A stretch of 64,000 nt of DNA from an uncultured Verrucomicrobiales bacterium (lineage in GTDB: Bacteria > Verrucomicrobiota > Verrucomicrobiia > JADLBR01 > JAIBCM01), in contig CAYSZK010000003.1 in NCBI GenBank assembly GCA_964435495.1, positions 2,870 through 66,869 of the forward strand. The letters run 5' to 3'. Shown here piece by piece: positions 20,865 through 40,767 of the stretch (position 1 is the first letter of the stretch; each line of letters starts with the position of its first letter). The notes under the pieces are model-generated. The model saw only the letters and a list, made by a program, of their open reading frames with translations, was not told where the DNA came from and made no database searches. Made by a program: the position numbers and the translations under genes.

Positions 20865-21647
20865 CTACGGGTTGCACCGGTCGGCGGCGAAGAGCGCGGC
20901 CCCGAGCGCGCCGGTCATGTGGGGATCGGGCGCGACGGCCACAGGTTGGCCCAAGGCGCGCTCCATGGCCCCGGCCATGCCCGGGACGCGGGCGACGCCT
21001 CCGGTAAAGACGATGGGCGGCGTAAGATCGCGCCCGGCGAGGGCGGCGAGGCGGGCGGCCAGGGCGGCGAGCACGCCGGCGGCGATCTCCTCGCGCGGCA
21101 CGCGGGAGGCGAGGAGACCGATGATTTCGCTTTCGGCGAAGACGACGCACATGCTGCTGATGGCGGCGGGCTTGAGGCCGCGCGAAGCCACTTCGCCGAG
21201 GTTGGCCAGCGGGACGCCGAGGCGTTCGGCGACCAGCTCAAGAAACCGGCCGGTGCCGGCGGCGCAGCGGTCGTTCATTCGGAAGTCCAGCACCGCGCCG
21301 CCGGGCTTGAGGCGCGTGACCTTGCTGTCTTGGCCGCCGACTTCGATCACGGTGCGCGAGCCGGGTTGGAGATGGGCGGCGCCGCGGGCGTGGCAGGTGA
21401 TTTCCGTGACAGCGCCGTGGGCCGCGCCGATGATGTGGCGGGCGTACCCGGTGGCAATGGCGCACCGGACGGCGCCGCGGCCCCCAGGGATTTCCGCGAG
21501 GACAGCCTCGTAAAGGGCGGCGGCTCGTTGCTCCTGGTCGGGACCCTGCTCGGCGGCGCCGGAAGCCACGACGCGGCGGGACTGGGAGTCGAGGATGACG
21601 ATTTTGATGGCGCGGCTGCCCGCGTCGATGCCGGCGGCGAGGGTCAT
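20865..21647 (-). CDS. BadF/BadG/BcrA/BcrD-type ATPase (HgdC-like activase of 2-hydroxyacyl-CoA dehydratase / benzoyl-CoA reductase family)
   Basis: Acetate/sugar-kinase fold start MTLAAGIDAGSRAIKIV, then the conserved VEVGGQDSK and TGGVARVPGM. I confirmed the ATG at 21647, which overlaps the upstream gene's stop by 4 bp. Confidence 0.8.
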   Translation of the reverse strand: MTLAAGIDAGSRAIKIVILDSQSRRVVASGAAEQGPDQEQRAAALYEAVLAEIPGGRGAVRCAIATGYARHIIGAAHGAVTEITCHARGAAHLQPGSRTVIEVGGQDSKVTRLKPGGAVLDFRMNDRCAAGTGRFLELVAERLGVPLANLGEVASRGLKPAAISSMCVVFAESEIIGLLASRVPREEIAAGVLAALAARLAALAGRDLTPPIVFTGGVARVPGMAGAMERALGQPVAVAPDPHMTGALGAALFAADRCNP

Positions 21648-23053
21648 GGCGCGGGGGTGGCGCTCCGAGGCCGGGCTTCGCGGGCGGTTTCGACGAGGGC
21701 TTCGAGGCGGGTGCGCAGGGCGGCTTCGGCGGCATCGTCCAGGGACGGCACCTCGATTTCGAGCACGGGAATGGCGTGCCGGGCGGTGATGGCCTGTTGG
21801 AGGAGGATGGACTCGGCGGCGCAATGGCTGGCGCCGGGGATTCTGGAGATGACGGCGGCTTCGGCGCCGAACCGCGTGATGTCGCGGCAGATTCTGTCGC
21901 CGCGCCCGGCGCAAGGCCCGGCCATGGGATCGGCGAGGGCGGACCGGGCGAGGGCGGTGAGCGGATCGGAATCCTCGGGGATGGGGTCGAGGGCGTGGCA
22001 GAAAAGGAATTCGGAGCCGCAGAGGCGGCCGCCGCACTCTTCGAGGAGGTTCATGGCCTTGAGATCGGCGGCGGGATTGATCCAAAAGACCCGCACGGCA
22101 TCGGCGGGGAGGACGCCGGCGCGGGCGGCAACGCGGTGGCGCACTTCGGCGGCGACGGTTTCGAGGACGGCGAGGCATTCGGCCGGGTCGGAACAAAAAT
22201 GGATGGCGAGCATTTCGCAGATGAGCATTTCGAGCGCCGGAAAGGGGCAGGCCGGGGCGGTGTACACAAGCGAGCGCAATTCGTCGAGCAGGGCGCGGAC
22301 GTGGTTGGCGCCGGCGATGCCGGCTTGGAGCGTGGCGTCGGCGAGGGGCCGTCCGGTCAGGCCTTCGATGAGCTTCCGGACGCCGTCCAGCTCGGCGCGG
22401 ACGAGGCGGAGCTGGGAGGCGGGGGCGGTGAAACCGCCGGGGAGGGGAACGGCCTCTTCGTCGGGACCCGGCTGGCGGCGGTGGGGGATTTCCCACCAGT
22501 GGACGGGATGGCCGAGGCCTTCGAGGAGCTGGGAGATGGCGGTGAGATCGTCGCAGCAGGCGCCGACGCTGCAGACGACGCGGTCGGGGATGGGGAAATG
22601 GGCGCCGGTGACAAAGGCGCCGAGCAGGGCGCGCACGGGGCAGAGGCCGGGACCGGCGCCGAGGGCTTCGGCCTGGTCGAGAAGGCCGGCGCTGGATTCC
22701 AGGAGGCATGGCAGCCACCATGCGCCGTCGAGGTAAAACGCGGTGACGCCGGGGTCCGAATAGGCGATGACGGGGACCGTGCCAAGGTCCTTCATGACGC
22801 CGACGAGCTTCTTTCCTTCTTCCCGTGCTTCGCGCAGGCGGTCATTCTCGGTGAGTAGAAAATTCCAGAGGCGCAGGGCGGCGGCGGAGGTGTCGAAGAA
22901 GAGGGCGGCGAGGCGCCGGTTGGCGCCTTCGTCGAGATGGCGTTGGAGGGGGCCGCCGTACCCGGGTTCGCGCAGGCCGTCGGCGCAAAGCTGGGCGTGG
23001 CGGGCGCCCCATTCTTCCAGGCGGATGCGGCGGGGTCCGAGGGCGGCGTTCAT
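21644..23053 (-). CDS. 2-hydroxyacyl-CoA dehydratase family protein (HgdB/BcrB-like, 469 aa)
   Basis: Cys-rich segments (CSVGACCDDL, CAGRGDRICRD). Similar in length and composition to HgdAB/BcrBC subunits. I confirmed the ATG at 23053, overlapping the upstream stop. Confidence 0.65.
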   Translation of the reverse strand: MNAALGPRRIRLEEWGARHAQLCADGLREPGYGGPLQRHLDEGANRRLAALFFDTSAAALRLWNFLLTENDRLREAREEGKKLVGVMKDLGTVPVIAYSDPGVTAFYLDGAWWLPCLLESSAGLLDQAEALGAGPGLCPVRALLGAFVTGAHFPIPDRVVCSVGACCDDLTAISQLLEGLGHPVHWWEIPHRRQPGPDEEAVPLPGGFTAPASQLRLVRAELDGVRKLIEGLTGRPLADATLQAGIAGANHVRALLDELRSLVYTAPACPFPALEMLICEMLAIHFCSDPAECLAVLETVAAEVRHRVAARAGVLPADAVRVFWINPAADLKAMNLLEECGGRLCGSEFLFCHALDPIPEDSDPLTALARSALADPMAGPCAGRGDRICRDITRFGAEAAVISRIPGASHCAAESILLQQAITARHAIPVLEIEVPSLDDAAEAALRTRLEALVETAREARPRSATPAP

Positions 23054-24156
23054 GGGCGGGCGGCGGCTTGGGCGGCGAGGGTTTCGATAAAGGCTTCGAC
23101 GCGGGTGCGGGTGCGTCCGGCGGCGGCGGGCCCGGTGAGCGGCCCGGCGGCGGAGTCGAGGGGAAGGACAGGGACCGCGGCGAGCTGCTGGATGCGGCGG
23201 AGTTCGGTTTGCCAGAGATCGCACCAGAGATGGTGGCGGACGATGAGGCCGTCGAGCTCGCGTTCGCGGATGGCGGCGATGAGCCATTGATAGAGGCGGT
23301 CGTTGGGGCGTAGGGCGATGTCGGGGATGGCGTCGAAATAGGCGGCGGTGAGCGTTTCGAGGGGGTCGCCGAGGGCGGCGCCGAAGTTGAGGGGTTCGGG
23401 CAGGGTGCGTTCGCCGTGTTCGGTCCCGTCGAGCATGACGCGGGCGCCGGCGGCTTCGATCCAATCGAACAACTCCATGTCGCGGAGAAAGAGCGGCCCG
23501 CCGATCAAGCCGATCCGCGGTTCGGCGCGTGTGGCCGGGGGATGATCGTGGCGCGGGGCCTCGGGGATATCCTGGTGCAAGCGCCTCAGGAAATAGTCCA
23601 CGACGCCGGAGCTGAACCAGCCGGTGCGCCACTCGGCGAGGGTACGGGCGGAGACGGGGAGATTTCCGTCGCGGTGGAGATCCCCGAGCCGGCGCAGGGA
23701 TTTGCGGGCTTCGTCGAACCGGAAAAAGGTTTCGACTATGGCTTGTGGCGAAGGGGCGGTGCCGCCGAGGGCGGTGAGGAACCGGCCAAGGCGCTCGAGC
23801 TCGAGGGTGTAATATTCGCGGGCGGCCGGGCTTTTGCAGGCCTTGGGAACGTGGAACAGGAAGACCGGCGGCGAGTCGCCGCGGGTGGCGGCGAGCTCGG
23901 CGGCTCGGCGTTGCTGGTCGCAGGAGGTGGCCATGACGATGGCCGCGTGGGTGGCGCCCGCGGTTTCGTCGAGGAAGGCTTCGGCGTAGGGGCAGAAACC
24001 GGCCGCGCAGCCGCCGCAATCGCTGTCGGAACCGGCGGGCATCAGGCGGACAGGCCGGAACCCGTGGGCGGCGATCCATTCCGGGGGAATGAAAAAGGAG
24101 GTGACAACGACTTTCCTTCCCGGAAACCGCGCGCTCCACCGGCCCAGGGGGTTCAT
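23050..24156 (-). CDS. 2-hydroxyacyl-CoA dehydratase family protein (HgdA/BcrC-like, 368 aa)
   Basis: Cys cluster GSDSDCGGCAAGFCPY plus MATSCDQ. I confirmed the ATG at 24156. The upstream gene's stop (24158..24160) overlaps this ATG. Confidence 0.65.
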   Translation of the reverse strand: MNPLGRWSARFPGRKVVVTSFFIPPEWIAAHGFRPVRLMPAGSDSDCGGCAAGFCPYAEAFLDETAGATHAAIVMATSCDQQRRAAELAATRGDSPPVFLFHVPKACKSPAAREYYTLELERLGRFLTALGGTAPSPQAIVETFFRFDEARKSLRRLGDLHRDGNLPVSARTLAEWRTGWFSSGVVDYFLRRLHQDIPEAPRHDHPPATRAEPRIGLIGGPLFLRDMELFDWIEAAGARVMLDGTEHGERTLPEPLNFGAALGDPLETLTAAYFDAIPDIALRPNDRLYQWLIAAIRERELDGLIVRHHLWCDLWQTELRRIQQLAAVPVLPLDSAAGPLTGPAAAGRTRTRVEAFIETLAAQAAARP

Positions 24157-24157
24157 G

Positions 24158-25015
24158 TCAGGCGGGCTCCTTCGCGGGGGCGGGTGGCGGCCCCATGCGC
24201 CAGGCTGGCTGGATTTCGCAGGCGCCGCAATGGACGCATTCCATGCAGCGGATGCAGCGGGGATCGTCGGCCCGGACCTTGGAACTGACGCCGAAATCGC
24301 AGGTGTCGCCGCAGCGGCCGCAGTCGCGGCAGCGTTCGGGGAAAAAGCGCACCGAAAAGAGCGAGAAGCGGTTGAACAGGCCGAAGATGGCGCCGAGCGG
24401 GCAAAGGAGGACGCACCACGGGCGGCGGATGAAGAACATCGCGCCGAGCACCGCGCCCAGGACGGAGAGTTTGATGGCATTGGGCCAGACAACCGGCGCG
24501 CCCGCGAACGCCTGGCTGGCGGCGTGGGGGAGGGAGGCTTCAAGCGCGCCAGCCGGACAGACGCGGCAGAAGAAGAGCGGGTGTGCTTCGCCCCAGAACC
24601 AGGGGACGGCGACGACAAGACCGGCGAGCACGGCGTACCGGAGATGCGTCATCCAGTATGGCGGGTCCCATTTGGGCGTGGGAACCTTGGCGGCAAGGTC
24701 CTGGAGCAAGCCAAAGGGGCAGGCCCACCCGCACAAGGCGGTGCCGGCAAGCGCGCCAGCCAGGACAAGCGTGCCCAGCGCGAGGAACGGCATCAGATGC
24801 AGCGCGCTGAACTGGGCGAGCACGCCGATGGGACAGGCGAACGTGGCCAGCGGACACGCATAGCAATGGAACACAGGCGCGCACACCGAGTGCGTGCGCA
24901 GGCCCGCGGGACTGAGCCATGCCACGAGGAACAACGATTGCACCCAGAGCCTGTGGCGCGAGAGTTTCGAGGCGGGCGTGTTGAAGGAAAGTTGAGCCAT
25001 GGACGCCATGACCAA
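24158..25015 (-). CDS. Membrane-bound 4Fe-4S polyferredoxin (NapH/MauN-like)
   Basis: Four or more TM helices with two ferredoxin-type clusters (CxxCxxCxxxC-like: CRDCGRCGDTC and CIRCMECVHCGAC), plus the CPLATFACP and CGWACPFG motifs typical of the NapH family. Confidence 0.7.
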   Translation of the reverse strand: MVMASMAQLSFNTPASKLSRHRLWVQSLFLVAWLSPAGLRTHSVCAPVFHCYACPLATFACPIGVLAQFSALHLMPFLALGTLVLAGALAGTALCGWACPFGLLQDLAAKVPTPKWDPPYWMTHLRYAVLAGLVVAVPWFWGEAHPLFFCRVCPAGALEASLPHAASQAFAGAPVVWPNAIKLSVLGAVLGAMFFIRRPWCVLLCPLGAIFGLFNRFSLFSVRFFPERCRDCGRCGDTCDFGVSSKVRADDPRCIRCMECVHCGACEIQPAWRMGPPPAPAKEPA

Positions 25016-25028
25016 ATGGTCACTGTAT

Positions 25029-25409
25029 TCAGGTGGGACACCGGGCTTGCGGCGTCCCGGTGTAGGTCAGCCGCAGGACGCCCTCGGGCGTGCGAGCCAG
25101 GCCGGAGCGCGCCACTTCGAGAACAAGCTCGGGCTCGGCCTTGAGGGTGGACACGGTCCTGCGGACGACGATCTCGCTTGGCGCCTCTTGGCTGCCCATC
25201 AAGCCGGGCATTCCGGGCTCGCCGGGTTCGAGGCCGGGCCCGGCGCCGGGCGGAGGGGGCGGGGGCGTTTCCCGGGTTTCGCGCTCGAAGGTGACAGTCT
25301 GGTGATGGCCCATCGCGCCAAACACAAGCATGAACGCGCCGGCGGACACGAGCAGCGACGCGGCGAACGTGCGGCGGACCGGGTGGGAGGCCGGCGCGGA
25401 CGGGTTCAT
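25029..25409 (-). CDS. Hypothetical small membrane-anchored protein
   Basis: Start MNPSAP. One TM helix (FAASLLVSAGAFMLVFGAM), a poly-Pro linker and a C-terminal beta-rich domain. It lies immediately downstream of tRNA-Sec. I recognised no family. Confidence 0.35.
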   Translation of the reverse strand: MNPSAPASHPVRRTFAASLLVSAGAFMLVFGAMGHHQTVTFERETRETPPPPPPGAGPGLEPGEPGMPGLMGSQEAPSEIVVRRTVSTLKAEPELVLEVARSGLARTPEGVLRLTYTGTPQARCPT

Positions 25410-25430: not shown

Positions 25431-25526
25431 TGGCGGAGGCGAATGGGAGTCGAACCCACCCGGGACCTTTCCAGGCCCCACACTGGTTTTGAAGACCAGG
25501 AGCGCCACCGGACGCCTGTCACCTCC
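25431..25526 (-). tRNA. selC: tRNA-Sec (selenocysteine tRNA, anticodon TCA)
   Basis: Reverse complement reads GGAGGTGACAGGCGTCCGGTGGCGCTCCTGGTCTTCAAAACCAGTGTGGGGCCTGGAAAGGTCCCGGGTGGGTTCGACTCCCATTCGCCTCCGCCA. It has an 8-bp acceptor stem, anticodon loop CTTCAAA (UCA), a long variable arm, a GGTTCGACTCC T-loop and an encoded CCA, and is 96 nt long. Confidence 0.8.
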
Positions 25527-25541
25527 AAAAATCGCATGCGG

Positions 25542-27158
25542 TCAATCTCCTGTTTGCCGTCCGTCCATTTGCGCCTGGACCGCTTTGTAAAACATCATGA
25601 CCGGCGATCCCCCAAAAGCAATCGCGCTCCACGCCGCGTCGTCGATTTCGTCCTGGCTGAATCCCATTGCGCGGGCCTTTTGGATGTGCTGGACGGCGCA
25701 GGGTTCGCACTTGGACAGAACCGACAAGGCCACGGCAATGGCCTGCTTGGCCGGTGCGTCAAGCCCCTTGGGCCTGCCCGCCGATTGCAGAAACGCCATG
25801 AACCGTTTCTCGGTGTCCTGGATGGCGCTCCCGGAAACGCCCGGCGCCCGCGCGGCGTCCGGCGGCGCGGCATCGGTTTCCGCGCAGCAGGCGGTTTCGG
25901 CGCCGGTGGCGCCGGTGGCGGGTGGGGCAGGCGGGGGGGCGGCGCGCGGCATGACACGTTCCTGGCGGGTTGTTAGAGTCACCATGCCCGTGCCCTTTCC
26001 GGTGGCACGTCCGATGACCGCGGCGGCGGGCACGCCGCGGGCGTGAAGGGCGGTGACGAGGGCGGGGGCGCGGTCGTGAGGGATGGCGATGAGGAGGCCG
26101 CCGGAGGTTTGGGGATCGAAGCAAACGTCGAGCGCGACGGGGTCAAGGCCTTCCGCGGAGCGGACCTGGCCGCCGGCGGCGGCGCGGTTGCGTTCGGTGG
26201 CGCCGGGGATGACGCCTTCGGCGGCGCGGGCCAGGGCGCCGGGGAGCAGGGGGATGTCGTCCCAGACCAACTCGGCATCGACGCCGCTGTCGCGGGCCAT
26301 TTCGGCAAGGTGCCCGAGGAGGCTGAAGCCGGTGACGTCGGTGCAACCGTTGGCGCCGTGGGCGAGCATGAGTTCGGCGGCGGTGTTGTTGAGGGCGGCC
26401 ATCGAGGCGGCGGCGGCCGCGATCTCGTCGGGACCGGCGCGGCCAATCTGTGCGGCAAAGGCGAGGATTCCCGTGCCGAGGGGTTTGGTGAGGACCAGCG
26501 CGTCGCCGGGCCGGGCGCCGGCGCGGGCGGTCACGCGGTCCGCGTCGATCTCCCCGGTGACGGCAAAGCCGGCTTTGATCTCGCTGTCCTGGATGCTGTG
26601 GCCGCCGATGACCGAGACGCCGGCCTCGGCCATCTTGTCGAGGCCGCCGCGGAGGATGTCGCGCATGACGCTGGTGGGGACGGCGCCGGCGGGGAAGCCG
26701 ATGATGGACAGGGCGGTCAAGGGGCGGCCACCCATGGCATAGACGTCGCTGACGGAGTTGGCGGCGGCGATCTGGCCGAAGGTGTAGGGATCATCGACCG
26801 AAGGACTGAAGACATCGACCGTCTGGACCAGGCACCGGGCGCCGTCGAACCGGTAAACCCCGGCGTCGTCCCCGGCGGCAACGCCGAGGAGCACGCGCGG
26901 GTCGTCGGGCGCGGGAAGGCCCTGGACGGCCTCTTTGAGGGTGGCCAGGTCGATCTTGGAGGCGCAGCCGGCCTTTTGGACAAGCCGCGTGAGGCAGACG
27001 GGACCAGGCGCGGGTTCGAGGTGTTCGCCGGCGCAATGGCAGACGTCCTTTTCCTTGAGAAGCTCGCACGGGCAGGCGAGGCGCGGGTCGCACACGCAAT
27101 GGCCCAGCGCGATGGAGCGGCGCATGACGCGCTGGCGTTTTTCGAGGTCCCTGGCCAT
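25542..27158 (-). CDS. selD: Selenide, water dikinase (selenophosphate synthetase), Cys form, with an N-terminal Cys-rich extension and a C-terminal AhpD/carboxymuconolactone-decarboxylase-like domain
   Basis: SelD core with LTRLVQKAGCASKI (E. coli: LTQYSHGAGCGCKI) and a PurM-like fold. The N-terminal roughly 50 aa carry three CxC pairs (CVC, CPC, CHC). The C-terminal roughly 110 aa carry an AhpD-like CxxC (SKCEPCAVQH). Confidence 0.8.
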   Translation of the reverse strand: MARDLEKRQRVMRRSIALGHCVCDPRLACPCELLKEKDVCHCAGEHLEPAPGPVCLTRLVQKAGCASKIDLATLKEAVQGLPAPDDPRVLLGVAAGDDAGVYRFDGARCLVQTVDVFSPSVDDPYTFGQIAAANSVSDVYAMGGRPLTALSIIGFPAGAVPTSVMRDILRGGLDKMAEAGVSVIGGHSIQDSEIKAGFAVTGEIDADRVTARAGARPGDALVLTKPLGTGILAFAAQIGRAGPDEIAAAAASMAALNNTAAELMLAHGANGCTDVTGFSLLGHLAEMARDSGVDAELVWDDIPLLPGALARAAEGVIPGATERNRAAAGGQVRSAEGLDPVALDVCFDPQTSGGLLIAIPHDRAPALVTALHARGVPAAAVIGRATGKGTGMVTLTTRQERVMPRAAPPPAPPATGATGAETACCAETDAAPPDAARAPGVSGSAIQDTEKRFMAFLQSAGRPKGLDAPAKQAIAVALSVLSKCEPCAVQHIQKARAMGFSQDEIDDAAWSAIAFGGSPVMMFYKAVQAQMDGRQTGD

Positions 27159-27164
27159 GGCGGG

Positions 27165-28337
27165 TCAGGCGGGGGCGCCGGCTTCCGTGCGGATGGTTTC
27201 AAAAAGGGCTTCGAGCCGGACGGCGATCCGCCCGGTGTCCGAGGGGGAGTAATCCGTTTCGATGCGGAGGTACGGCAGGGCCAGCCTGTCCCCGGCAAGC
27301 CGTTTGACGAGATCGGACTCGATATCGTAGGTGAGGCAGGCCTGCCAGACCAGGTCGATGACGCAGGCCGCGCGGTACTCGCGCGCCAGGCGGGCGATGG
27401 ATTCGAGCCGGGCGTTGTTGGGCGACATCACCGAGCACGGAATGGCCAGGTATTTGTCCGCCAGCGCCTCAATGGGATCGGGATTGGCCTCGTCCACGTC
27501 GTCGAGGATCGGTTTGAGGCCGGTGCAATTTTCCTGGCAGACGATGAGCCCGCCGCGGTCCTCGATGAGGTCCACCACGCGCTCCGCCCCGTGCACCACG
27601 GGCACGCCGGTAAGCAGCACGCGAACGCGTCCAGCCAGGTCCGGGCGCGATGGCGCGGCTTCCCGCTCCCGGAGGATGGCCTCGTAGCGGGCGAGGTCCT
27701 CGGGAATGCCGGAGATGATGGACTTGAGATCAAGCAATTCGCGCCCCGTGAGCGGGGGCGGATCGAGGCGCATGAGGCCGGCCAGGCGGCGGCGCAGGCG
27801 GCGCTCGCGGTTCATGAGCCGGATGGCGTCCCGGATGCGGGCGGTGGTGATTTTGACGCGGAACCGGTCCTCGAGCACCTGGATGAGGCGGTTCATTTCG
27901 GACGTCCACTGGGCGCGGGCGCCGGGATCGCCGGGACGGTGGGGGAGAGCGAGGATGTGCATGGGCCGGGACTCGGCCATGATCTCGAACATCTTTTTCT
28001 TGCCGTCGCAGGTTGTTTCGGCGACGACGAGCGCGGCTGACTCAAGGAATGGGTTGGATTTTCCGACGTGGTAGCCGAAGGTGGACTTGATCAGGGGGCA
28101 GAGATTGGAGGGCAACCGGGTTTCCGCGTCGGGGATGGTTTCCGGTTCGCCGCCGCAGAGGCAGACTGGAACGGCATTGGCGGCCATGATGATTTCGCGC
28201 GGGGTGAATTCGCACATGATGCCGACGATGGGGCGGCCTTGTTGGGCGGCCTGTCCGGCATGGGCGCGGCAATGGCCGAACATGCCGTCGAACCACGCCA
28301 GGGACGCGGGGCGTGGGGAAGCGGTCAGCGCGGGCAT
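27165..28337 (-). CDS. 2-hydroxyacyl-CoA dehydratase family protein, second HgdB-like paralog (390 aa)
   Basis: VGIMCEFTPREIIMAANAVPVCLCGGEP and ETTCDGKKKMFE match the HgdB/BcrB-type Fe-S subunit family. It sits 6 bp upstream of selD. Confidence 0.6.
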   Translation of the reverse strand: MPALTASPRPASLAWFDGMFGHCRAHAGQAAQQGRPIVGIMCEFTPREIIMAANAVPVCLCGGEPETIPDAETRLPSNLCPLIKSTFGYHVGKSNPFLESAALVVAETTCDGKKKMFEIMAESRPMHILALPHRPGDPGARAQWTSEMNRLIQVLEDRFRVKITTARIRDAIRLMNRERRLRRRLAGLMRLDPPPLTGRELLDLKSIISGIPEDLARYEAILREREAAPSRPDLAGRVRVLLTGVPVVHGAERVVDLIEDRGGLIVCQENCTGLKPILDDVDEANPDPIEALADKYLAIPCSVMSPNNARLESIARLAREYRAACVIDLVWQACLTYDIESDLVKRLAGDRLALPYLRIETDYSPSDTGRIAVRLEALFETIRTEAGAPA

Positions 28338-28385: not shown

Positions 28386-30260
28386 TCAGGGTTTCTTGAA
28401 CCAATCCTCGCTCTGCTTGTATTCAAACGCGCCGAGCTTGGCGTCCACTTCCACGCGGAATTCGCCGTCGAGACTGGAAGGCACACGCCACGTGTACCGG
28501 CAGGTGCCGCCTCATCCATACTCAAATTTGCCGGACTCGATCTTCTTGCCGTCCCGGTTGAGGATGGTGAAGATTGGGGCGGACTGGCGCTCGTTGTTGC
28601 GGCGGGCCCCGGCTTCGTAGGTCTGGCCTTCCTTGTCTTCGAGGGTGAATTCAATATAGGCCGTATTGTTGCCGCGCCAATCGACATCGACTTTCGCCCT
28701 GAGGCCAGATCCCACGCCTGTGGCCACGGCGGCGCCGGGGCGGATTTCGATTTTGCGGGAGTTGCCGGAGGACGCGCCGTTGAGGGTCCAGTCGGCGCCG
28801 CCTGCCTGGTGGCGCAGGCGGTAATACCCGATCTGGTAGGTGCCCGGCGCGAGGTCCCAGCCGTCTTTGGCGCCGGCGTCCAGGTAACCGCAGCAACCGC
28901 GGCTGAGGACGGCGAGTTCCAGGTGGGGGGACTCTGGTTTCAGTTTGCCGGCGTCCATGCGGACCTCCTGAAGGAGCAGCGTGGAAGCGTCCGGCTCGGA
29001 GTTGACCTGGAAAAATTTTCCGGCGAGGGCGAGCAATGGGGTTAGCGGCAAGATTTCGCCCCGGTAATCGAAGCGTTCGTTGCCGTCGAGGTCGAGGGCG
29101 AGGAGATCGTAGCCGGGACGCTCGTCTCCGTCGGACGATCGCTGGTTGTAGGGCAGCAGGTCGAGCGTGAACCCGGCCTCGATGCGCCCGTTGTTGCTGG
29201 CGTCAGTCACCGCGGCGAGCAGTTTGCGGGGGCCGGCGGCGGTTTTCCCTTCCCAGTGGCAGGCCGGCGCGACTTCGAGGTAACCGGGGGTGGAGGAGTT
29301 TTGCGTGTACACCCGGCCTTTGAACTCGATCTCCAGAGGGACTTTGCCTTCCGCCGCTGACGACTGGATTTCAGCGTCGCCGAATTTGTAGTAGCCGTAG
29401 CGCTCGGCCGATTCGCCGGTGTACTCATTGGAGGCGCTCAGGACCTTGGCCTTGGCCAGGTCGCCGCTGCCATCCACATCGACCAGCAACCGGGCCCTGC
29501 CCAAGTTGTCGGCGTCCATGAGCATGAACACGTCCCGCCCGCCGATCTTGGCCGAGAAGTAGAGCGGCTTTTTCACGTCCGGCGCGTTTTTGATGCCTTC
29601 GGGCGGGGCGTAAAGCAGGCGGGCGTTGCGTTCCGAGGCGTAGGCGAGATATTGCTGCAACTCGGCGGTTCCGCGCTTTTTCAAGGGCGTCTTCTCCCCA
29701 AAACCGACCTGATCCATGGACCGGGAGGCGGGGGCCGATGCCGCGGCGGGCGCGGGGGATTGGGATGTTTCGGGCTTGGCCGGGGACGGGGCGGCGGGCT
29801 GTTCGGTCGCGCGCTGGGCTTGGAGTTCCCTCTGCCACTCGTCGTACCGGCGCCAGAAATCGGTCCTGGCGGCGTCGATCTCGATGGCGGTGGACCCGGT
29901 GGCGGCGAGGATGAGCTTTCCTTTCTCGATGCCGACCAACTCGAACTCCTTGCCGGGGGCAAGCTTCATCGAGCCGACGGTCTTGCCGTTGATATGGAGC
30001 GGCACCTCCGAAGGCGCGAGGACGGAGACGGCCTTGGGCCATTGCTCCGGGTCTTTGGCGATCTCGGCGAGCTTGGCGGCGTCGGCGGCCGGACCGGATT
30101 GCGCGGGGGCGGCGGCGGCCCAGGCCCAGGCCAGCGCGGCGGCCAGGATAAGAAAGGGATCGAGCGCGCTGGCTGGATTCCGACCCGCAAACACCCGAGG
30201 CAATGGCCTGATCCCCTGCATAGCGGCGCCATGGTGGCGGATTCCTGGCGCGCTGGTCAA
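28386..30260 (-). CDS. Candidate selenoprotein: secreted protein of unknown function with an in-frame TGA (Sec?) 42 codons before the final TGA
   Basis: The annotated ORF ends ...KFEYG then TGA at 28512..28514. The same frame continues GGTCRYTWRVPSSLDGEFRVEVDAKLGAFEYKQSEDWFKKP to a stop at 28386..28388. The extension has GC3-rich codons and a protein-like composition. Its FEY motif echoes KFEYG just before the TGA. A signal peptide starts at the alternative start 30221 (MQGIRP...AAALAWAWAAAAPAQS). Confidence 0.5.
28470..28511 (-). promoter_or_regulatory. Candidate bacterial SECIS-like hairpin immediately 3' of the in-frame UGA
   Basis: The mRNA reads UGA GGC GGC ACC UGC CGG UAC ACG UGG CGU GUG CC. 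The outer stem is GGCAC/GUGCC and the inner is GCC/GGC, around a CACGUG palindrome. Only manual folding was done. Confidence 0.3.
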
Positions 30261-30399: not shown

Positions 30400-31893
30400 G
30401 TGGGACGGGGGCAGGATGGGGGCATGGACGGCATGCCGGACCCGGCGCTGTTGCGCGCGATTCCGCCGGTGGAGGCGTTGGTGGCGGCGAATGCGGGCCG
30501 GGAGGAATTTGCGGGTTTGTCGCGGGAGCGGTTGACGGGTCTGGTGCGGGAAACGGTGGAAGGCGTGCGGCGGGAGGCGCGGACGGGGTCGCTCGCGCCG
30601 GGGGGGGAAGGCGGGGAGGGATGGGCGGCGTGGGTGCGGCGGGAGATCGCGGCGCGGCTGCTGGGGCGTGCGCGGGAATCGGCGCGGGCGCATTACCGTC
30701 GGGCGATCAACGCGACGGGCGTGATTTTGCACACGGGCCTTGGCCGGGCGGTGCTGGCGGAGGAGGCGCTCGCGCAGGTGGGCGCGGAATTGCGCGGGTA
30801 TTCGGTGCTGCAACAGAGCGTGGAGACGGGGGAACGGACGCGGCGGGACCTGGGAGTGGAACGGTTGTTATGCCTGTTGACGGGCGCGGAGGCGGCGACG
30901 GTGGTGAACAACAACGCGGCGGCCACGATGCTGGCGCTGGCGGCGATGGCGGCGGGGCGCGAGGTGCTTGTGTCGCGGGGCCAGTTGATCGAGATCGGCG
31001 GGTCGTTCCGGCTGCCGGACGTCATGGCGGCGAGCGGCGCGAAGCTGGTGGAGGTGGGCACCACGAACAAGACCCACCCGCGCGATTACGCCAACGCGCT
31101 CACGGAGCGGACGGCGGCCATCATGCGGGTGCATCCGAGCAATTACCGCATCCACGGTTTTGTCAGGGAGGTGGGCACGGCGGAGCTTGTCGCCATCGCG
31201 AAGCCGCGCGGAATCCCCGTCATCGACGACCTGGGCGCGGGCGCGTTGCTTGACCTTTCGCGGTTTGGGTTCGAGAAGGAGCCGACGATCCAGGAATCGG
31301 TGCGGGCGGGGGCGGACGTGGTGTTGTCGAGCGCGGACAAGCTCATTGGCGGGCCGCAGGGCGGGATCATCCTGGGGCGGGCGGCGGTGGTCGCGGCCAT
31401 CCGGAAGCATCCGCTGGCGCGGATCGTGCGCGTGGACAAGGTGACGCTGGCGGCGCTGGAGGCGACCCTGCGCCTGTTTCTTGACGAAGGCCTGGCGTTG
31501 CGGCGGGTTCCGACGCTGCGGATGCTGTGCCGCACGGTGGAGGAGATCGGCGCGGAGGCCGCGGCGATGGCGGACTGGTTGCGGGCGGAGGGGGGCGGCG
31601 CGTTGCCGGCGGAGGTGGCGTTGGAGGACGGGGCGTCGTTCATGGGGGGCGGGTCGCTGCCGGAGCAGGAGCTTCCGACGCGGCTGGTCGCGGTCCGTCC
31701 GCGGGCGATGGGGGCCGCGGAGCTGGCGGCGCGGCTGCGGCGGGGCGTGCCGGCGGTGTTTTGCCGCGTCCGGCATGAGGGGGCGTTGTTCGACCCGCGA
31801 ACGATGCTGGCCGGGGAGGCGGCGGAGGCGGCGCGGGCGGTGGCGCGTTGCCTGGTGGAGGCGCCTGGCGCGGAGAGCGCGGCGGCGGCTTGA
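30400..31893 (+). CDS. selA: L-seryl-tRNA(Sec) selenium transferase
   Basis: PLP-dependent SelA core (NATGVILHTGLGRA...SADKLIGGPQGGII) and the typical N-terminal tRNA-binding region. The true start may be 30424 or 30433. Confidence 0.85.
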   Translation: MGRGQDGGMDGMPDPALLRAIPPVEALVAANAGREEFAGLSRERLTGLVRETVEGVRREARTGSLAPGGEGGEGWAAWVRREIAARLLGRARESARAHYRRAINATGVILHTGLGRAVLAEEALAQVGAELRGYSVLQQSVETGERTRRDLGVERLLCLLTGAEAATVVNNNAAATMLALAAMAAGREVLVSRGQLIEIGGSFRLPDVMAASGAKLVEVGTTNKTHPRDYANALTERTAAIMRVHPSNYRIHGFVREVGTAELVAIAKPRGIPVIDDLGAGALLDLSRFGFEKEPTIQESVRAGADVVLSSADKLIGGPQGGIILGRAAVVAAIRKHPLARIVRVDKVTLAALEATLRLFLDEGLALRRVPTLRMLCRTVEEIGAEAAAMADWLRAEGGGALPAEVALEDGASFMGGGSLPEQELPTRLVAVRPRAMGAAELAARLRRGVPAVFCRVRHEGALFDPRTMLAGEAAEAARAVARCLVEAPGAESAAAA

Positions 31894-31898
31894 CCCGG

Positions 31899-33842
31899 AT
31901 GGCGACCCGGCGGATTCACATCACCCTGGGCACGGCCGGGCATATTGACCACGGCAAGACGGCGCTGGTCCGGAATCTGACCGGGTGCGAGACCGACACG
32001 CTCAAGGAGGAGAAAGAGCGGGGGATGTCGATTGACCTGGGGTTCGCGCCGTGCCGGATCGAAGGCCTGGAAGCCGGGCTGGTGGACGTGCCGGGGCACG
32101 AGAATTTCGTGCGGACGATGGTGGCGGGCGCGACCGGGATGGACGGGGTGATTCTTGTCGTCGCGGCCGACGATGGCGTGATGCCGCAGACCCGCGAGCA
32201 TCTGGACATCCTGTGCCTGCTGGGGGTGCGGCACGGCGTGGTGGCGCTGACGAAGATCGACCGCGTCGAGGCGGGGCGGGTGGAAGAGGTGGCCGCGGAA
32301 GTCCGCGGGCGGCTGCGTGGCACGTTCCTGGAGCCGGCGGAAATCTGTCCGGTGTCGAACACGACGTTTGAAGGCTTGAATGATCTCCGGGCGGCGCTGG
32401 TCCGGTTGATGGAGCGCGTGCCGCCGCGCGGGACGGGAGGTGTGTTCCGGCTGCCGGTGGACCGGGCGTTTGCGGTGAAGGGGTATGGCGCGGTGGTGAC
32501 GGGGATACCGGCGCACGGCCGGGTGGCGGTGGGCGCGGAGCTGGAGATGCATCACCAAGGCGGGGAAAAGCCGGTGGCCGGGCGGTTGCGGGCGGTGCAG
32601 GTGTACCGGGAGGCGGGAGAGACGGCGCAGGCGGGCGAGTGCGCGGCCCTCAATGTGCCGCAATGGGACCACGCGCGGACGCGGCGCGGGGATGTCGTGG
32701 CGGCGCCGGGCTGTTTTGTCGCGGGCGAGTGGCTGGTGTGCCGCCTTGCGTTGCTCGGGCGGGAAGGGTTGGACCTCAGGAACGGCGGGCAGGTTCGCGT
32801 GCACACGGGGACCGTTGACGTGCCGGGGACGGTGTACCTGGAGCAAGGGCGCCGGATGAATGCGGGAGACGAGGGACTCGTGCAAGTGCGGGTGGCCGCG
32901 CCGATTGTGGCGGGGCCGGGCGATCCCTTCCTTCTTCGCGTCCTGGGTCCGGCGCGCACCATCGGAGGCGGGCGGATCGTGGCGATGCCGGCGCGGAGGT
33001 TGCGGCGGCAGCGTCCGGAGGCGTGGGCCGCGGCGCGGGCGCGGGCCGAGGCGCTTGGGGACCCAATACGGCTGGTGGAGAGTTGCTTGCGCGCGGCCGT
33101 GGGCGGCATCGCCCGCGAACCGGGCCTGGAGTTTGAGGCCAAACTGCGGGCGGACGAAGTGCGGGCGGCGCTTGGGGCGTTGGAAGCCGGGGGCGTGGCG
33201 GTGGCGGTTCCGGGGCAGGGGTATATCCATGGGGAGACCGCGGCGCGTGCGCGGGCGGCGGTGTTGGCGGCGGTGGGGGCGTTTCACCGGGAGCATCCGG
33301 AGAGTCCGGGCCTGGCGCGGGAAAGCGGGTGGGTGCCCACGCTGGGGGAAGGGCCACCTCTGGCGCCGGCGTTGGCGGAGTGGGCGGTGGCGGCACTGTT
33401 GGGGGATGGGGCGTTGGTGAGGGACGGGGCGACGGGGCGGATTGCGTTGCCGGAGCACACGGCGCGGGTGACCGATGCGGACAGGCTGGGGATGGAGGCG
33501 GTGGAGCGGGCGTTTCGGGAACATCGATTTGCTCCGCCGGACGAAACCGGGTTGGCGGCGGCGGGCGGGGTCGGGGTGGAGGAGGCGCGGCGGCTGACGC
33601 GGCTGCTGGAGGAGCGGGGGCGGCTGGTGCGGGTGGGGGCGGGGCTGCTGTTTCACGCGGAGGCGGTGGCCGAGGCGCGCGCGCGGATTGAGGAACACAT
33701 GCGGCGGGAAGGGCGGCTGGAGAGCGTGAAATTCAAGTACCTGGTGGAAACGACGCGCAAGTTCGCGCTGCCGCTTCTGGATTATTTCGACCGCATTGGA
33801 GTCACGCGCCGGGTGGGGAACACGCGGTTTCCGCGGCGGTGA
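31899..33842 (+). CDS. selB: Selenocysteine-specific translation elongation factor
   Basis: G-domain (GHIDHGKTALV, DVPGHENF, TKID), EF-Tu-like domains II and III, and a long winged-helix C-terminal extension that would bind SECIS. The start lies 5 bp after the selA stop. Confidence 0.85.
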   Translation: MATRRIHITLGTAGHIDHGKTALVRNLTGCETDTLKEEKERGMSIDLGFAPCRIEGLEAGLVDVPGHENFVRTMVAGATGMDGVILVVAADDGVMPQTREHLDILCLLGVRHGVVALTKIDRVEAGRVEEVAAEVRGRLRGTFLEPAEICPVSNTTFEGLNDLRAALVRLMERVPPRGTGGVFRLPVDRAFAVKGYGAVVTGIPAHGRVAVGAELEMHHQGGEKPVAGRLRAVQVYREAGETAQAGECAALNVPQWDHARTRRGDVVAAPGCFVAGEWLVCRLALLGREGLDLRNGGQVRVHTGTVDVPGTVYLEQGRRMNAGDEGLVQVRVAAPIVAGPGDPFLLRVLGPARTIGGGRIVAMPARRLRRQRPEAWAAARARAEALGDPIRLVESCLRAAVGGIAREPGLEFEAKLRADEVRAALGALEAGGVAVAVPGQGYIHGETAARARAAVLAAVGAFHREHPESPGLARESGWVPTLGEGPPLAPALAEWAVAALLGDGALVRDGATGRIALPEHTARVTDADRLGMEAVERAFREHRFAPPDETGLAAAGGVGVEEARRLTRLLEERGRLVRVGAGLLFHAEAVAEARARIEEHMRREGRLESVKFKYLVETTRKFALPLLDYFDRIGVTRRVGNTRFPRR

Positions 33843-35418
33843 TTTCATTCCAGAGCGCGGGGCCTTCGACGGCGGTCGGGGTGACGATCCGGAGGCGATC
33901 GGGGGCCGGGGCGGGCTGGAGGAGCGAGACGGCGGCGAGGGAGAGAGCGGCAACGAGGACGCCGGCGCCAATGTAAAAGTAGCCGTAGCCGCCGGCCAGC
34001 CAGGCGGGCAGGACGGCGGTGTAATAATGGGGGGCGCCGGGATCGGCGGCCTGAAGGAAGCGGTATTCCCAAAGATAAACCGCGAGGGTCGTCACGGCGC
34101 CGAGGACGCTGGCGGTGAAGGCGCCGCTCGCGGTGGCGCGGCGCCAGAAGATGGCGATGGCGGGGACGGCGATGGAGGCGGAAAGCACGCCGGAGGAAAG
34201 ATAATAGACGTCGCCGAGGCGGTCGGCGATGGCGGCGTAACCCACGGCAAGCAGCAGGCAGGCGGCGGTGATGATCTTGGCGGGTAGCACCGTGGACTTG
34301 GCGGAACCGCCGAACAAGGGGCGGTAGAGATCGTAGGCGAGGGGCATGGCGGTGACGTTGGTGAACGTGTCCACGGTGGACATCTGGCAGGCGATGACAC
34401 CGAGGAACATGAAGACCGCCAGCCCAGGCGGCATCTGGGCGAGGAACGCGGCGATGATTCCCGTGAAATCGGCGCCCACGGCCGCGGCGCCGGGGCCGCT
34501 AGGTTTGAAAACGACGAGCGCGCAGAAGGCGACCACCGCCGGGATGGCGATGACGAACACCGTGATCAGGACCAAGCCGATGAGGGCGCCGATGCGCGCC
34601 TGGGGCGTGGTGGGCGCGGCTTGGATGCGCAGAACGAGATCTTGTTCGACCAGCCAGCCGGGGAGGTACCCGATGAGCAGGACGGCGGGAAAAATCCAGT
34701 CGAGCGTGTTGAGGTTGAGGGCGGCGGGGGCGCCGGCGTTGGGCGGCGCGATTTCGCGCAAGGCGGCGAGGACGCCCATGGGCGCGGCGGCGTGGGCCTG
34801 GACCAGCGCCCAACCGCCGAGGACCGCCATGAACGGCGCCATGACGGCGAATTGCAGAAAGTCGGTGGCGACGATGGAGCGGAAACCGCCCAGCACCATA
34901 TAGACGAGGACCGGGAGGATGAACGCGAGGAGCATCAGATTGGGGTGGGCCGCCAGCCCGAGGCTGGGGGCGGCGAGGGTCTTGACCATGACCAACTCGG
35001 CGCCGGTCCAGGAAAGGAACACGCCGAAGGAAAGAAAGGCGGCGAGACGCCGGAGGTTCGGGCCGAACCGGCGGCCGAGGGCTTCGGGCAGGCTCAGCGC
35101 GGCGGCGCGGCGGAAGAACGGGACCAGCAGGACGATGAGCCAGCAGAGGATGAACCAGGGGATGGGCAAGAGCCAGAGGCCGGTGGCGCCGTACCCGTAA
35201 ATCTGGCTCATGCCAAACCCGATCCATCCGAGCATAAGCCAGCCGGAGGCCAGGGAGACCCCCAGGCGCCAGCCGGGGATGGAACGGCCGGCGGCCCAGA
35301 ACTCGAAATCGGGATGCGCCCGGGCTTGGAGCAACCGGCGGCGGCCCCAGAAGCCGACGCCCATGACGGCAAGCGCGTACATCCCGTAAACAACCCAACA
35401 CCCCGCGACGGTATTCAT
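33802..35418 (-). CDS. Sodium:solute symporter (SSS) family transporter
   Basis: About 13 TM helices with SSS-family topology. I confirmed the ATG at 35418. The 3' end converges with selB and overlaps it. Confidence 0.8.
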   Translation of the reverse strand: MNTVAGCWVVYGMYALAVMGVGFWGRRRLLQARAHPDFEFWAAGRSIPGWRLGVSLASGWLMLGWIGFGMSQIYGYGATGLWLLPIPWFILCWLIVLLVPFFRRAAALSLPEALGRRFGPNLRRLAAFLSFGVFLSWTGAELVMVKTLAAPSLGLAAHPNLMLLAFILPVLVYMVLGGFRSIVATDFLQFAVMAPFMAVLGGWALVQAHAAAPMGVLAALREIAPPNAGAPAALNLNTLDWIFPAVLLIGYLPGWLVEQDLVLRIQAAPTTPQARIGALIGLVLITVFVIAIPAVVAFCALVVFKPSGPGAAAVGADFTGIIAAFLAQMPPGLAVFMFLGVIACQMSTVDTFTNVTAMPLAYDLYRPLFGGSAKSTVLPAKIITAACLLLAVGYAAIADRLGDVYYLSSGVLSASIAVPAIAIFWRRATASGAFTASVLGAVTTLAVYLWEYRFLQAADPGAPHYYTAVLPAWLAGGYGYFYIGAGVLVAALSLAAVSLLQPAPAPDRLRIVTPTAVEGPALWNEITAAETACSPPGA

Positions 35419-35514
35419 CGTTCGGATGAATCTGTCGGAAGGGCGGGGCCATGGCGAGTGGAAATGATGCGGCGCGGCCGCTTTGGGATTGCGCACGCGG
35501 CGGGTGGGCGCACG

Positions 35515-36648
35515 ATGGGGCGCGTGTTGTACCGTGAACTTGGCGGGACGGGATTGAAAGTGTCGCAGTTGGGCTTTGGCGCGATGCGATTGCCCATGAC
35601 CCCGCGGGACGAATCCGGGAAGGCGCGGGTGGACCGGGAAATGGCGGTTCCGTTGATGCATCGGGCGTTCGAGGCCGGGGTGAACTACATCGACACGGCG
35701 GTGGGTTATTGCGACGGGGACTCCCAGAGCGCGGTGGGCGAGGCGCTGCGCGGCTGGCGGAGGCGGATCGTGGTTTCGACGAAGAACCATTACTATGGGG
35801 AAGACGAGGGGGAATGGTGGCGGAACCTGGAGAACTCGCTGGAACGGCTGGGGGTGGATTGCATCGACATCTACAACCATCACGGCGTGAACTGGGACAC
35901 GTTCACCCGGCATGTCGAGCCGCGCGTGGGCAAGTGGATGCGCAAGGCCGTGGACCAGAAGCTCGTGCGGCACGCCTGCTGTTCGTTCCATGACAACAAC
36001 GCGAATCTCCGCCGGTTGATCGACACCGGGTACGCGGATGTCATCACACTCCAGTACAATCTGCTCGACCGGCAATTGGAGGACGGGATCGCCCACGCGC
36101 ACGCGAAGGGCGTGGGGGTGGTGGTGATGGGGCCGGTGGCGGGCGGGCGGCTCGGCGCGGGCAGCGACGTCCTGGCCGACCTGGTCCCCGGCGTCAGGCG
36201 CGTGCCCGAGCTGGCGCTCCGGTTTGTGCTGAGCAACCCCGGAGTCGCCGTCGCGCTGTCGGGCATGAGCGCCGTGGAACAGGTGGCGGAAAACGCGGCG
36301 GTGTGCGCGGACCGGGTGGCGCTTTCCGAGGGGGACCGCGCGGCGATTGCGGAACACCTGGCGCGGCTTCAAAAAATGGCGGACCTGTATTGTACCGGCT
36401 GCAAGTATTGCATGCCCTGCGAGGCGGACGTGAACATCTCCGCAATCTTCGAGTTTTTCAACCGGGCAAAGGTGTACGGGCTGTGGGAATCGGCGCGCGC
36501 GTCGTATGCAAGCCTGGGGACCGTCCCGTGGCTGAAGGGGAACCGCGCGGACGCCTGCGTGGAGTGCGGAAGTTGCGAGGACAAGTGCCCGCAGCGGATT
36601 CCGATCCGGGACCAGCTCAAGCAGGCGCACAAGGCGTTGGCCGGGTAG
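35515..36648 (+). CDS. Aldo/keto reductase with a C-terminal 4Fe-4S ferredoxin-like domain
   Basis: AKR N-terminus (ELGGTGLKVSQLGFGAMRL...NYIDTA). The C-terminus carries CTGCKYCMPCE and CVECGSCEDKCP cluster motifs. I confirmed the ATG at 35515. Confidence 0.8.
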   Translation: MGRVLYRELGGTGLKVSQLGFGAMRLPMTPRDESGKARVDREMAVPLMHRAFEAGVNYIDTAVGYCDGDSQSAVGEALRGWRRRIVVSTKNHYYGEDEGEWWRNLENSLERLGVDCIDIYNHHGVNWDTFTRHVEPRVGKWMRKAVDQKLVRHACCSFHDNNANLRRLIDTGYADVITLQYNLLDRQLEDGIAHAHAKGVGVVVMGPVAGGRLGAGSDVLADLVPGVRRVPELALRFVLSNPGVAVALSGMSAVEQVAENAAVCADRVALSEGDRAAIAEHLARLQKMADLYCTGCKYCMPCEADVNISAIFEFFNRAKVYGLWESARASYASLGTVPWLKGNRADACVECGSCEDKCPQRIPIRDQLKQAHKALAG

Positions 36649-40628: not shown

Positions 40629-40767
40629 GCGCGGCTCCGGCAAGGAAATGGCTGCCTGGCTATGGTCCACGAACCGGCAATCAAAGCGTAAAACCGGGTC
40701 CTTGTCTAATAGCGGTTTTAAGCGGGAGAGGGGGAGTGGGGGGCGGCAAAACCCTTCCGGACAAACG

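Follow-up and report, generated by a model that had tools for sequence, protein, structure and literature searches.

The double-cubane-cluster proteins (DCCPs) are connected with selenium metabolism through genome statistics: 955 of 970 strong DCCPs of the family NF040772 are found in SelD-containing assemblies, and either the processing of a selenium compound or a Se-bridged cluster has been proposed for them (Haft & Gwadz, doi 10.1101/2022.07.06.499078). A selenium island of Slackia includes HGD subunits together with an activase (Lin et al., PMC5322559), the selenium-salvage cluster type I mlp tends to accompany the selenocysteine (Sec) machinery in genomes (PMC10418091), and SPS2 of Naegleria represents a fusion of SelD with a methyltransferase (PMC4561486). 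Here, we analyzed a stretch of 64,000 nucleotides from an uncultured Verrucomicrobiales bacterium (GenBank assembly GCA_964435495.1, contig CAYSZK010000003.1, positions 2,870 to 66,869; hereafter the window) that carries four consecutive minus-strand genes for a membrane polyferredoxin (FER), a small (S) and a large (L) subunit of the HGD-D family and an activase-type ATPase (ACT). We propose jointly that a single transcription unit of the selenium island reaches from a DCCP gene through ACT, with these four genes at its 3' end, and that this unit combines two selenium-linked modules, a reading for which we see the chances as evenly balanced. The features on which the argument builds are the following, in window coordinates:

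28337..27165, minus strand: DCCP, a bona fide double-cubane-cluster protein of 390 amino acids (aa) (NF040772, 408 bits, cut-off 350)
27158..25542, minus strand: SelD, extended N-terminally by a Cys-rich segment and fused C-terminally to an AhpD/CMD domain, 538 aa (TIGR00476, 349 bits; Pfam CMD, E = 4.8e-14)
25526..25431, minus strand: tRNA-Sec (selC; ARAGORN anticodon TCA; Rfam RF01852, 74 bits)
25409..25020, minus strand: SMALL, a predicted selenoprotein of 129 aa with a conserved C-x-x-TGA-x-x-stop, the Sec codon TGA being at 25031..25029
25013..24995, minus strand: candidate bacterial selenocysteine insertion sequence (SECIS) hairpin over the FER start codon (alignment covariation)
25009..24158, minus strand: FER, NapH-like membrane polyferredoxin, 283 aa (Pfam Fer4_5, E = 7.6e-14)
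24156..23050, minus strand: S, small HGD-D-family subunit, 368 aa (Pfam HGD-D, E = 1.3e-41)
23053..21644, minus strand: L, large HGD-D-family subunit, 469 aa (Pfam HGD-D, E = 3.4e-37)
21647..20865, minus strand: ACT, BcrAD_BadFG/HgdC-like activase-type ATPase, 260 aa (TIGR00241, 231 bits, cut-off 125)
30400-31893, plus strand: SelA, divergent from the array (Pfam SelA, E = 1.8e-133)
31848-33842, plus strand: SelB, divergent from the array (Pfam GTP_EFTU and SelB winged-helix domains)

A preliminary description, made from the letters of the DNA, had presented the last four minus-strand genes as an operon of their own. Their identities were recovered by Pfam and NCBIfam searches and their coupling is evident; the operon is larger than described, since DCCP, the SelD-AhpD fusion, tRNA-Sec and SMALL precede FER, in this order and on the same strand. 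Intergenic gaps amount to 6-21 nt in the stretch from DCCP to SMALL, and none in the array exceeds 21 nt. Two of the three junctions reported as ATGA overlaps are of this type (S/L, 23053-23050; L/ACT, 21647-21644), whereas FER and S are joined as TGAcATG with a 1-nt spacer between the stop codon (24160-24158) and the start codon (24156-24154), the latter preceded by the Shine-Dalgarno sequence AAGGAG. Tight coupling of this kind is common in operons and by itself unremarkable. A scan for sigma-70 promoters and terminators was uninformative, with terminator-like sites at the level of the shuffled expectation. SelA, SelB, SelD and tRNA-Sec all lie inside 9 kb of the window, i.e., the Sec-decoding machinery is present.

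The link to selenium was followed in the gene neighborhood of S in other bacteria. A scan with one genome per species revealed relatives of S in 176 species genomes, all of them metagenome-assembled genomes (MAGs), and 80 loci were annotated by tblastn; frequencies refer to loci with enough flanking sequence. The hosts belong mostly to the Planctomycetota (Pirellulales, Planctomycetaceae, Phycisphaerae, Sedimentisphaerales), further ones to the Omnitrophota, Verrucomicrobia, Lentisphaerales, Armatimonadota, Aminicenantes and Hydrogenedentes. In the commonest order, SelA and SelB diverge from a series starting with a secreted protein gene (U582-like), followed by a 268-aa S-adenosylmethionine (SAM) methyltransferase (MT), DCCP, S, L, ACT, SelD/AhpD and, in brackets as it were, tRNA-Sec, SMALL and FER. 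S is immediately succeeded by L in 65 of 66 loci and L by ACT in 60 of 63; in 63 of 69, DCCP is the gene directly before S, an arrangement from which the window differs. MT was encountered in 56 of 62 loci, the cluster-linked SelD is fused to an AhpD/CMD domain in 27 of 28, and SelA, SelB or SelD is found nearby in 25 of 28. The S-L-ACT trio is, thus, a conserved part of the selenium island and not a mere neighbor; the earlier statement that it sits next to this island was right on location and understated the relation. The HGD-D/DCCP-activase genes stay linked to the Sec machinery in at least seven gene orders across several phyla (examples are L005, L016/L084, L047/L061, L142 and L144, besides the commonest order and the window type). 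As the genes remain together through these rearrangements, selection on the linkage is indicated instead of simple inheritance.

The possibility that S, L, ACT, DCCP, MT or FER are selenoproteins themselves was ruled out by the lack of any recurrent in-frame TGA; therefore, the linkage of S, L and ACT is not due to these genes encoding selenoproteins. As a separate observation, ACT directly follows DCCP without S/L in between in some loci (L142:7344-8539, L048:16722-18592), and in L142 this DCCP-ACT pair adjoins SelA-SelB-SelD. In lineages of this type, DCCP and ACT may form the selenium-linked core.

FER is a different matter. Eighteen of its Cys residues are invariant, eight in two 4Fe-4S motifs and most others in four CxnCP-type motifs, and the window protein combines two CxxxCP motifs, membrane helices and two C-terminal 4Fe-4S motifs in the NapH/MauN architecture. 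Its orthologues (1375 matches) are 53-72% identical; an AlphaFold2 model was poor, with a predicted local distance difference test (pLDDT) score of 62. The impression that FER is far more abundant than the reductase (1375 against 82 S matches) was dropped, as L gave 2541 matches; that S scored so few is explained by its weak conservation and by the word-based search. When metagenomes were scanned with FER as the anchor, 80 loci were obtained, in which tRNA-Sec was located upstream of FER in 46 of 69 cases, at a distance of 335-700 nt and even at loci without other nearby selenium genes. FER abuts S in the window only. Elsewhere, the two genes are 3.6-9.4 kb apart, in one genome (L017 vs L088) even 1.9 Mb, and many FER loci contain neither S nor L within 10 kb.

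How the junction of the window arose can be read from two related loci. The FER genes of L090 and L091 are close to that of the window (74% and 66-67% identity, respectively; the L090 FER cluster includes a protein from a Verrucomicrobiae MAG), and both loci show the order DCCP-SelD/AhpD-tRNA-Sec-SMALL-FER-MT-S-L-ACT, with the position of tRNA-Sec upstream of FER confirmed. Compared with L090:10867-11698 and L091:6831-7628, where MT separates FER from S, the junction at 24154-24160 would have been created by loss of MT. By this comparison, the coupling of FER and S is predicted to be a lineage-specific rearrangement followed by MT loss, not a conserved pairing, and the real partner of FER would be SMALL; with tRNA-Sec upstream, the three form a unit.

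These data bear directly on the explanation favored in the preliminary description, in which FER, as dedicated first gene, passes electrons from the quinol pool to S/L/ACT and thereby constitutes a membrane-energised low-potential reductase. It would account for the 1-nt spacer in the window, the overlap of FER with MT-S-L-ACT in L090, the NapH-like motifs, and the recurrence of FER, which belongs to the same co-directional island in 13 of the 25 loci flanked by 9-10 kb on either side. The expected co-occurrence of the polyferredoxin with HGD-D genes was thus borne out at island level; the adjacency to S was not, being confined to the window, and the steady neighbors of FER are tRNA-Sec and SMALL. 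With 51.8 bits against a cut-off of 213, FER also stays outside the NapH/MauN subfamily (TIGR02163), and no NapG, NapA/NapAB or MauM partner occurs in the window or the FER loci, leaving coupling to the quinol pool without indication. Menaquinol has a potential far too positive to reduce an activase cluster unless an energy-coupling device is involved. Neither such a device nor a recognizable ion-translocating or quinol-binding partner for FER was seen, and nothing points to membrane energisation. We therefore consider a dedicated electron entry through FER quite unlikely.

SMALL is cut at the UGA by standard open reading frame (ORF) calling, and neither with nor without the Sec extension does it match Pfam or NCBIfam. 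It begins with a transmembrane helix at the N-terminus, continues with a variable linker rich in Pro and closes with a conserved C-terminus bearing the motif ...REVTxGG...RTY[ST]G..P..CP[TS], which in the window ends ...RLTYTGTPQARCPT-U-IQ; the corresponding codons CPT-TGA-ATA-CAG-TGA would read CPTUIQ. A C-x-x-TGA followed by exactly two sense codons and a genuine stop was found in 65 of the 81 FER loci whose upstream sequence was long enough. Within these 65 loci, comprising 32 distinct sequences, the recoded codon is always TGA, and most of the remaining loci hold variants, e.g., CPT-U-x-stop. About 15-20 nt after the TGA, a hairpin with an 8-bp stem and a 3-nt loop with an invariant central G (consensus GACCAUGG-YGN-CCAUGGUC) extends across the first codons of FER, which explains the conserved N-terminus of the latter (MVAM..., MASM in the window). 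In an alignment of 32 distinct orthologous regions, 98.4% of the cells pair, compared with 12-42% when the partners are slid; compensatory changes occur at three pairs, and the covariation score was reached by none of 500 shuffles. The hairpin is likely the SECIS element of SMALL. Based on the conserved C-x-x-TGA-x-x-stop together with the covarying hairpin, SMALL very probably represents a UXX-star-type selenoprotein with a membrane anchor and a CxxU motif, for which there is no NCBIfam model. The positive-inside rule, applied by eye, suggests that the CxxU motif faces the periplasm. A look through the text of a 2026 review on selenoproteins of prokaryotes turned up neither the CPTU motif nor any membrane-anchored family. 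In the Omnitrophota (L020, L047, L061), a tiny transmembrane ORF ending ...QTSSTL-TGA-LSCIGIQ-stop was noticed upstream of a FER-like gene, in the order small ORF, FER-like gene, tRNA-Sec, SelA, SelB; it would represent the small selenoprotein in a UxxC variant.

The assignment of S, L and ACT to the ATP-dependent BCR/HAD/DCCP superfamily, i.e., of benzoyl-CoA reductases (BCRs), 2-hydroxyacyl-CoA dehydratases and DCCPs, was upheld by the HGD-D and TIGR00241 matches. ACT is, by sequence, a standard archerase/activase of TIGR00241 and of the HgdC type: its PDB sequence matches are MbdQ (3e-59), HadI (6e-50), HgdC (1HUX, 4e-49) and DCCP-R (3e-40), and C128 and C167, invariant in 66 orthologues, align with the Cys of NDKCAAGTG and SSTC in HadI and MbdQ, which correspond to the ligands bridging the 4Fe-4S cluster in the HgdC structure. 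S and L are more distant from anything described. S reached 82 bits on the double_cubane model (cut-off 350), 36 bits on BzdN (454) and 21 bits on BcrC (421), and L gave one NCBIfam match, 55 bits on double_cubane (cut-off 350); no Hgd, Had, Fld or Lcd model was matched by either at E<=0.01. Congruently, the PDB sequence matches of the pair are about 1e-8 to 1e-10 overall, with BzdN (6e-10) and DCCP (2e-9) for S and DCCP alone for L, and 3O3M gave no match at E<=1. An AlphaFold2 model of L (pLDDT 85.9) retrieved with Foldseek first DCCP (7e-20, 20% identity), then HadB (6e-16, 14%) and MbdO/BzdO (~1e-13). Of the double-cubane type conjectured before, the part that holds is that DCCP is, together with BzdN/BzdO, the nearest solved relative; membership of NF040772 is missed by both subunits. 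The stronger reading of this placement is that S and L constitute a hitherto undescribed clade of the DCCP/HAD/BCR superfamily, outside the characterized 2-hydroxyacyl-CoA dehydratase clades. In literature searches, which did not cover subscription journals, neither the S/L clade nor the SelD-AhpD fusion nor the SMALL-FER pair was found to have been described before.

The family of L is sharply delimited, with 308 of 1.84 billion cluster representatives matching at E<=1e-3. Within the same genome set, L orthologues are 60-65% identical across phyla, those of S only 35-46%. The far stronger conservation of L suggests an active site in this subunit, with S serving as a rapidly evolving partner in structure or electron transfer. 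The three invariant Cys of S (C55, C79, C312) align with C80, C110 and C334 of DCCP and correspond to the cubane triad that is generic to this fold. L exhibits seven (C116, C138, C161, C167, C287, C345, C411), of which ~5 are near the ligand positions of DCCP, the spacing being different from the DCCP motif CX19CX18-19CX29CX166-170CX32-34CX32C. Distant L homologues of ~860 aa (L171:8001-10604; P0332, P0343) look like two HGD-D modules joined into one protein; at L171, this gene is nevertheless part of an MT-S-L-ACT arrangement, with no selenium genes nearby.

The true DCCP of the window belongs to NF040772, possesses the conserved Cys set and matches the DCCP structures 7yyl/6eno at 3e-61. The SelD next to it starts with an extension of 50 residues with the pattern HCxC..CPC-x8-CxC (...LGHCxCDPxxxCPCx8CxCAGE), kept in most of 40 aligned orthologues and without match in Pfam, NCBIfam or PDB sequences; it presumably resembles the CPC...CHC motif of ferredoxin:thioredoxin reductase. 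The C-terminal AhpD-like domain carries a CxxC. This neighborhood raises the question of the fate of the selenium activated by SelD. According to one explanation, it would enter a Se-substituted iron-sulfur cluster, such as a Se-bridged 8Fe-9S analogue, of DCCP and/or L, and S/L might even be the scaffold for its assembly, with ACT serving them. A selenium-substituted cluster is a formal possibility raised by Haft & Gwadz for the co-occurrence of DCCP and SelD. SelD stands directly beside DCCP or ACT in every arrangement seen, L is a DCCP paralogue, as expected of a scaffold, and its seven invariant Cys are partly placed like the DCCP ligands. Set against this, a biological Fe-S-Se cluster formed via selenophosphate has no known precedent, the solved DCCP structures are described as 8Fe-9S, the linked SelD is situated beside SelA, SelB and tRNA-Sec, suggesting ordinary Sec synthesis, and MT-S-L-ACT occurs in other phyla without nearby selenium genes. 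Incorporation of selenium into a cluster thus appears improbable, to a similar degree as the electron entry through FER.

Even less probable in our view is a pathway centered on MT. MT shows its best NCBIfam matches with arsenite methyltransferase-type and selenoprotein methyltransferase families (33-43 bits) and is widespread among the loci, and the AhpD domain fused to SelD matches those of the ArsM/AhpD and MduS selenoproteins. All this would be compatible with a methylation or detoxification of metalloids by the ArsM-like MT, for which the reductases prepare reduced Se, Te or As while SelD is a bystander. Every match of MT is, however, far below the family cut-off, the window retains S, L and ACT intact without MT, and the genes sit within the anabolic Sec machinery. 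Metalloid detoxification is also not known to need ATP-driven electrons of ultra-low potential.

Taken together, we prefer the two-module reading of the operon, which can be outlined as follows. The first module would comprise tRNA-Sec, SMALL and FER; most likely, FER conducts electrons from its two cytoplasmic 4Fe-4S clusters via the CxnCP Cys motifs to the CxxU of SMALL. In the second module, S and L would form a heterodimeric HGD-D iron-sulfur enzyme and ACT the corresponding homodimeric HgdC-type ATPase. ACT would take up an electron from reduced ferredoxin or flavodoxin and, driven by ATP hydrolysis, deliver it, at a very low potential, to S/L and probably to the co-encoded DCCP as well, with S offering a three-Cys cubane site and L a seven-Cys site. 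In most genomes, this second module appears as the core of MT-DCCP-S-L-ACT, followed by SelD/AhpD, while in the window lineage SelD and the first module stand between DCCP and MT, the window additionally being devoid of MT. The substrate might be a small, possibly refractory selenium species whose reduction feeds selenide to SelD, where the fused AhpD CxxC and the Cys-rich N-terminal domain would be suited to Se-S intermediates. A role in selenium handling is most likely, given that the linkage to SelD and the Sec machinery is conserved through repeated rearrangement; the specific supply of selenide to SelD is a more tentative proposal, which we regard as clearly less probable than the two-module reading as such.

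Several observations weigh against this reading. A search for MT over the 64-kb window gave no match better than E = 0.1, and the reading assigns no explained role to MT where it is present. No Cys-for-Sec homologue of SMALL (CPTC-type) was found among the 16 remaining FER loci. The hairpin of the window is part of the minimum-energy fold, but with an energy z-score of -0.64 it is not thermodynamically exceptional; consequently, the case for it rests on covariation. FER is co-directional with S-L-ACT in many loci, for which reason a direct hand-off of electrons from FER to ACT may take place. Much of the synteny in the Planctomycetota may have been inherited rather than independently selected. 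Finally, MT-S-L-ACT was observed without any selenium gene within 8-10 kb in five loci (Candidatus Xenobiia L002, Lentisphaerales L021, the Eubacteriales MAG L067, the uncultured Verrucomicrobia MAG L056 and the distant L171), so that the link to selenium may be lineage-specific.

The same five loci speak for yet another explanation, that S/L/ACT and MT act on an organic substrate devoid of selenium, e.g., as dehydratase or dearomatising reductase on a methylated metabolite. The selenium neighbors in bacteria of the Planctomycetes-Verrucomicrobia-Chlamydiae (PVC) group would then reflect inherited synteny or shared anaerobic regulation. All characterized two-subunit members of the HGD-D family are known to act on coenzyme A (CoA) thioesters, and L matches HadB and BzdO/MbdO in Foldseek with template modeling (TM) scores of 0.7-0.8. 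On the other side, ORF clustering of the neighborhoods of 85 loci gave no CoA-transferase, CoA-ligase, acyl-CoA dehydrogenase or hydroxyacid dehydrogenase family, S and L remain below all CoA-enzyme family models, the selenium linkage persists through the rearrangements described above, and DCCP and SelD co-occur genome-wide (Haft & Gwadz). An organic substrate is thus unlikely, albeit somewhat less so than the other three alternatives.

Should the assignment to selenium hold, we would tentatively see in the PVC group and neighboring bacteria a hitherto unrecognized, dedicated selenium pathway within the Sec operon. Its ATP-driven reductase system of the double-cubane type (DCCP and S/L, one activase, usually an ArsM-like MT) would either supply SelD-AhpD with selenide obtained from refractory selenium species or carry a selenium-containing Fe-S cofactor, and SMALL-FER, with its new membrane selenoprotein, would be encoded directly behind tRNA-Sec; taken as one joint claim, we rate this as possible but less likely than not. 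It would provide the DCCP family with its first physiological role and explain the co-occurrence of DCCP and SelD. The statistical link becomes a defined, clonable operon, represented by this locus and ~100 related loci and consisting of DCCP, S/L, one activase and usually MT, in the commonest order followed by SelD-AhpD on the same strand. This renders both ideas, selenium reduction for SelD and selenium within a cluster, directly testable. For SMALL-FER, found in dozens of lineages, the annotation is corrected to a probable CPTU-x-x end, and the likely partner of the polyferredoxin is reassigned.

At the head of the cluster, between SelA and DCCP, a further gene was recorded:

30260..28512, minus strand: U582, a secreted protein of 582 aa (homologous ORFs elsewhere)

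U582 matches neither Pfam nor NCBIfam. ORF clustering placed U582-type ORFs in the same position in 49 of 85 loci, and U582 is 37% identical to a 433-aa gene product at the equivalent position of L090; a second secreted family of ~324 aa occupies this position in 17 loci. Just downstream of SelB, the window encodes a protein that joins an aldo/keto-reductase domain with a 4Fe-4S dicluster domain (34621-36648, plus strand). An exosortase (EpsH) gene with WecG-type and group 1 glycosyltransferase genes is located at 39645-43988 (minus strand), which looks like an exopolysaccharide or PEP-CTERM locus with no relation to the selenium operon.

In comparison with the characterized members of the superfamily, the closest relative is the DCCP/DCCP-R system of Carboxydothermus hydrogenoformans (PDB 6ENO, 7YYL; E. 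coli YjiM family, NF040772). It has superfamily and fold in common with S/L, it is the top Foldseek match of L and the top NCBIfam match of both subunits, it relies on an ATP-dependent activase partner, and a true DCCP is part of the window operon. DCCP is, however, a single-subunit homodimer, whereas S and L are two distinct adjacent paralogues and presumably a heterodimer; S keeps three of the seven motif Cys, and L has seven with other spacing. The dehydratases HgdAB/HgdC and HadBC/HadI resemble the trio in gene content, with a larger and a smaller HGD-D paralogue and a separate homodimeric activase, in the closeness of ACT to HadI/HgdC (~1e-49, about the usual among these relatives) and in the three-Cys cubane pattern of S. 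They differ in that S/L match no Hgd, Had, Fld or Lcd model, that L shares 14% identity with HadB when the structures are aligned and has four extra invariant Cys, and that their context of CoA-transferase and 2-hydroxyacid dehydrogenase was not found by ORF clustering in the 85 loci. Class I BCRs (BcrABCD, BzdNOPQ, MbdONPQ; PDB 8S02, 9GAI) contribute the best PDB matches of S (BzdN) and ACT (MbdQ) and likewise depend on ATP-driven low-potential electron transfer, but they use two different ATPase subunits (A/D or P/Q) compared with the single activase gene here; their family cut-offs are missed more than 10-fold by S, with no match for L, and no aromatic-degradation genes are near the window locus.

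The first module has its counterparts among other proteins. FER shares the multi-pass membrane architecture, the CxxxCP motifs and the C-terminal 4Fe-4S pair with NapH/MauN, NosR and CcoG-type polyferredoxins (Fer4_5). It departs from NapH/MauN by four CxnCP-type motifs in place of two, by the lack of a NapG, NapAB or Mau partner, and by having a small Sec-terminated membrane protein as constant partner, the SECIS-like hairpin of which is carried by the first FER codons. SMALL, with its Sec-x-x-stop end and a hairpin beyond the short tail, is like the UXX-star selenoproteins (NF041114, NF041211; PMC13188914), although it matches neither model, shows the motif CP[TS]U and not UxxT or GxGU, is anchored in the membrane by its N-terminus and has a polyferredoxin and tRNA-Sec as partners. 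As for the proposed overall function, type I mlp clusters, with their proposed recycling of methylselenide (PMC10418091), offer the nearest parallel, as an accessory cluster proposed to turn a selenium compound into selenide for SelD; there, a corrinoid methyltransferase and a RACE activase take the place that HGD-D/DCCP enzymes, an HgdC-type activase and a SAM methyltransferase hold in the system described here.

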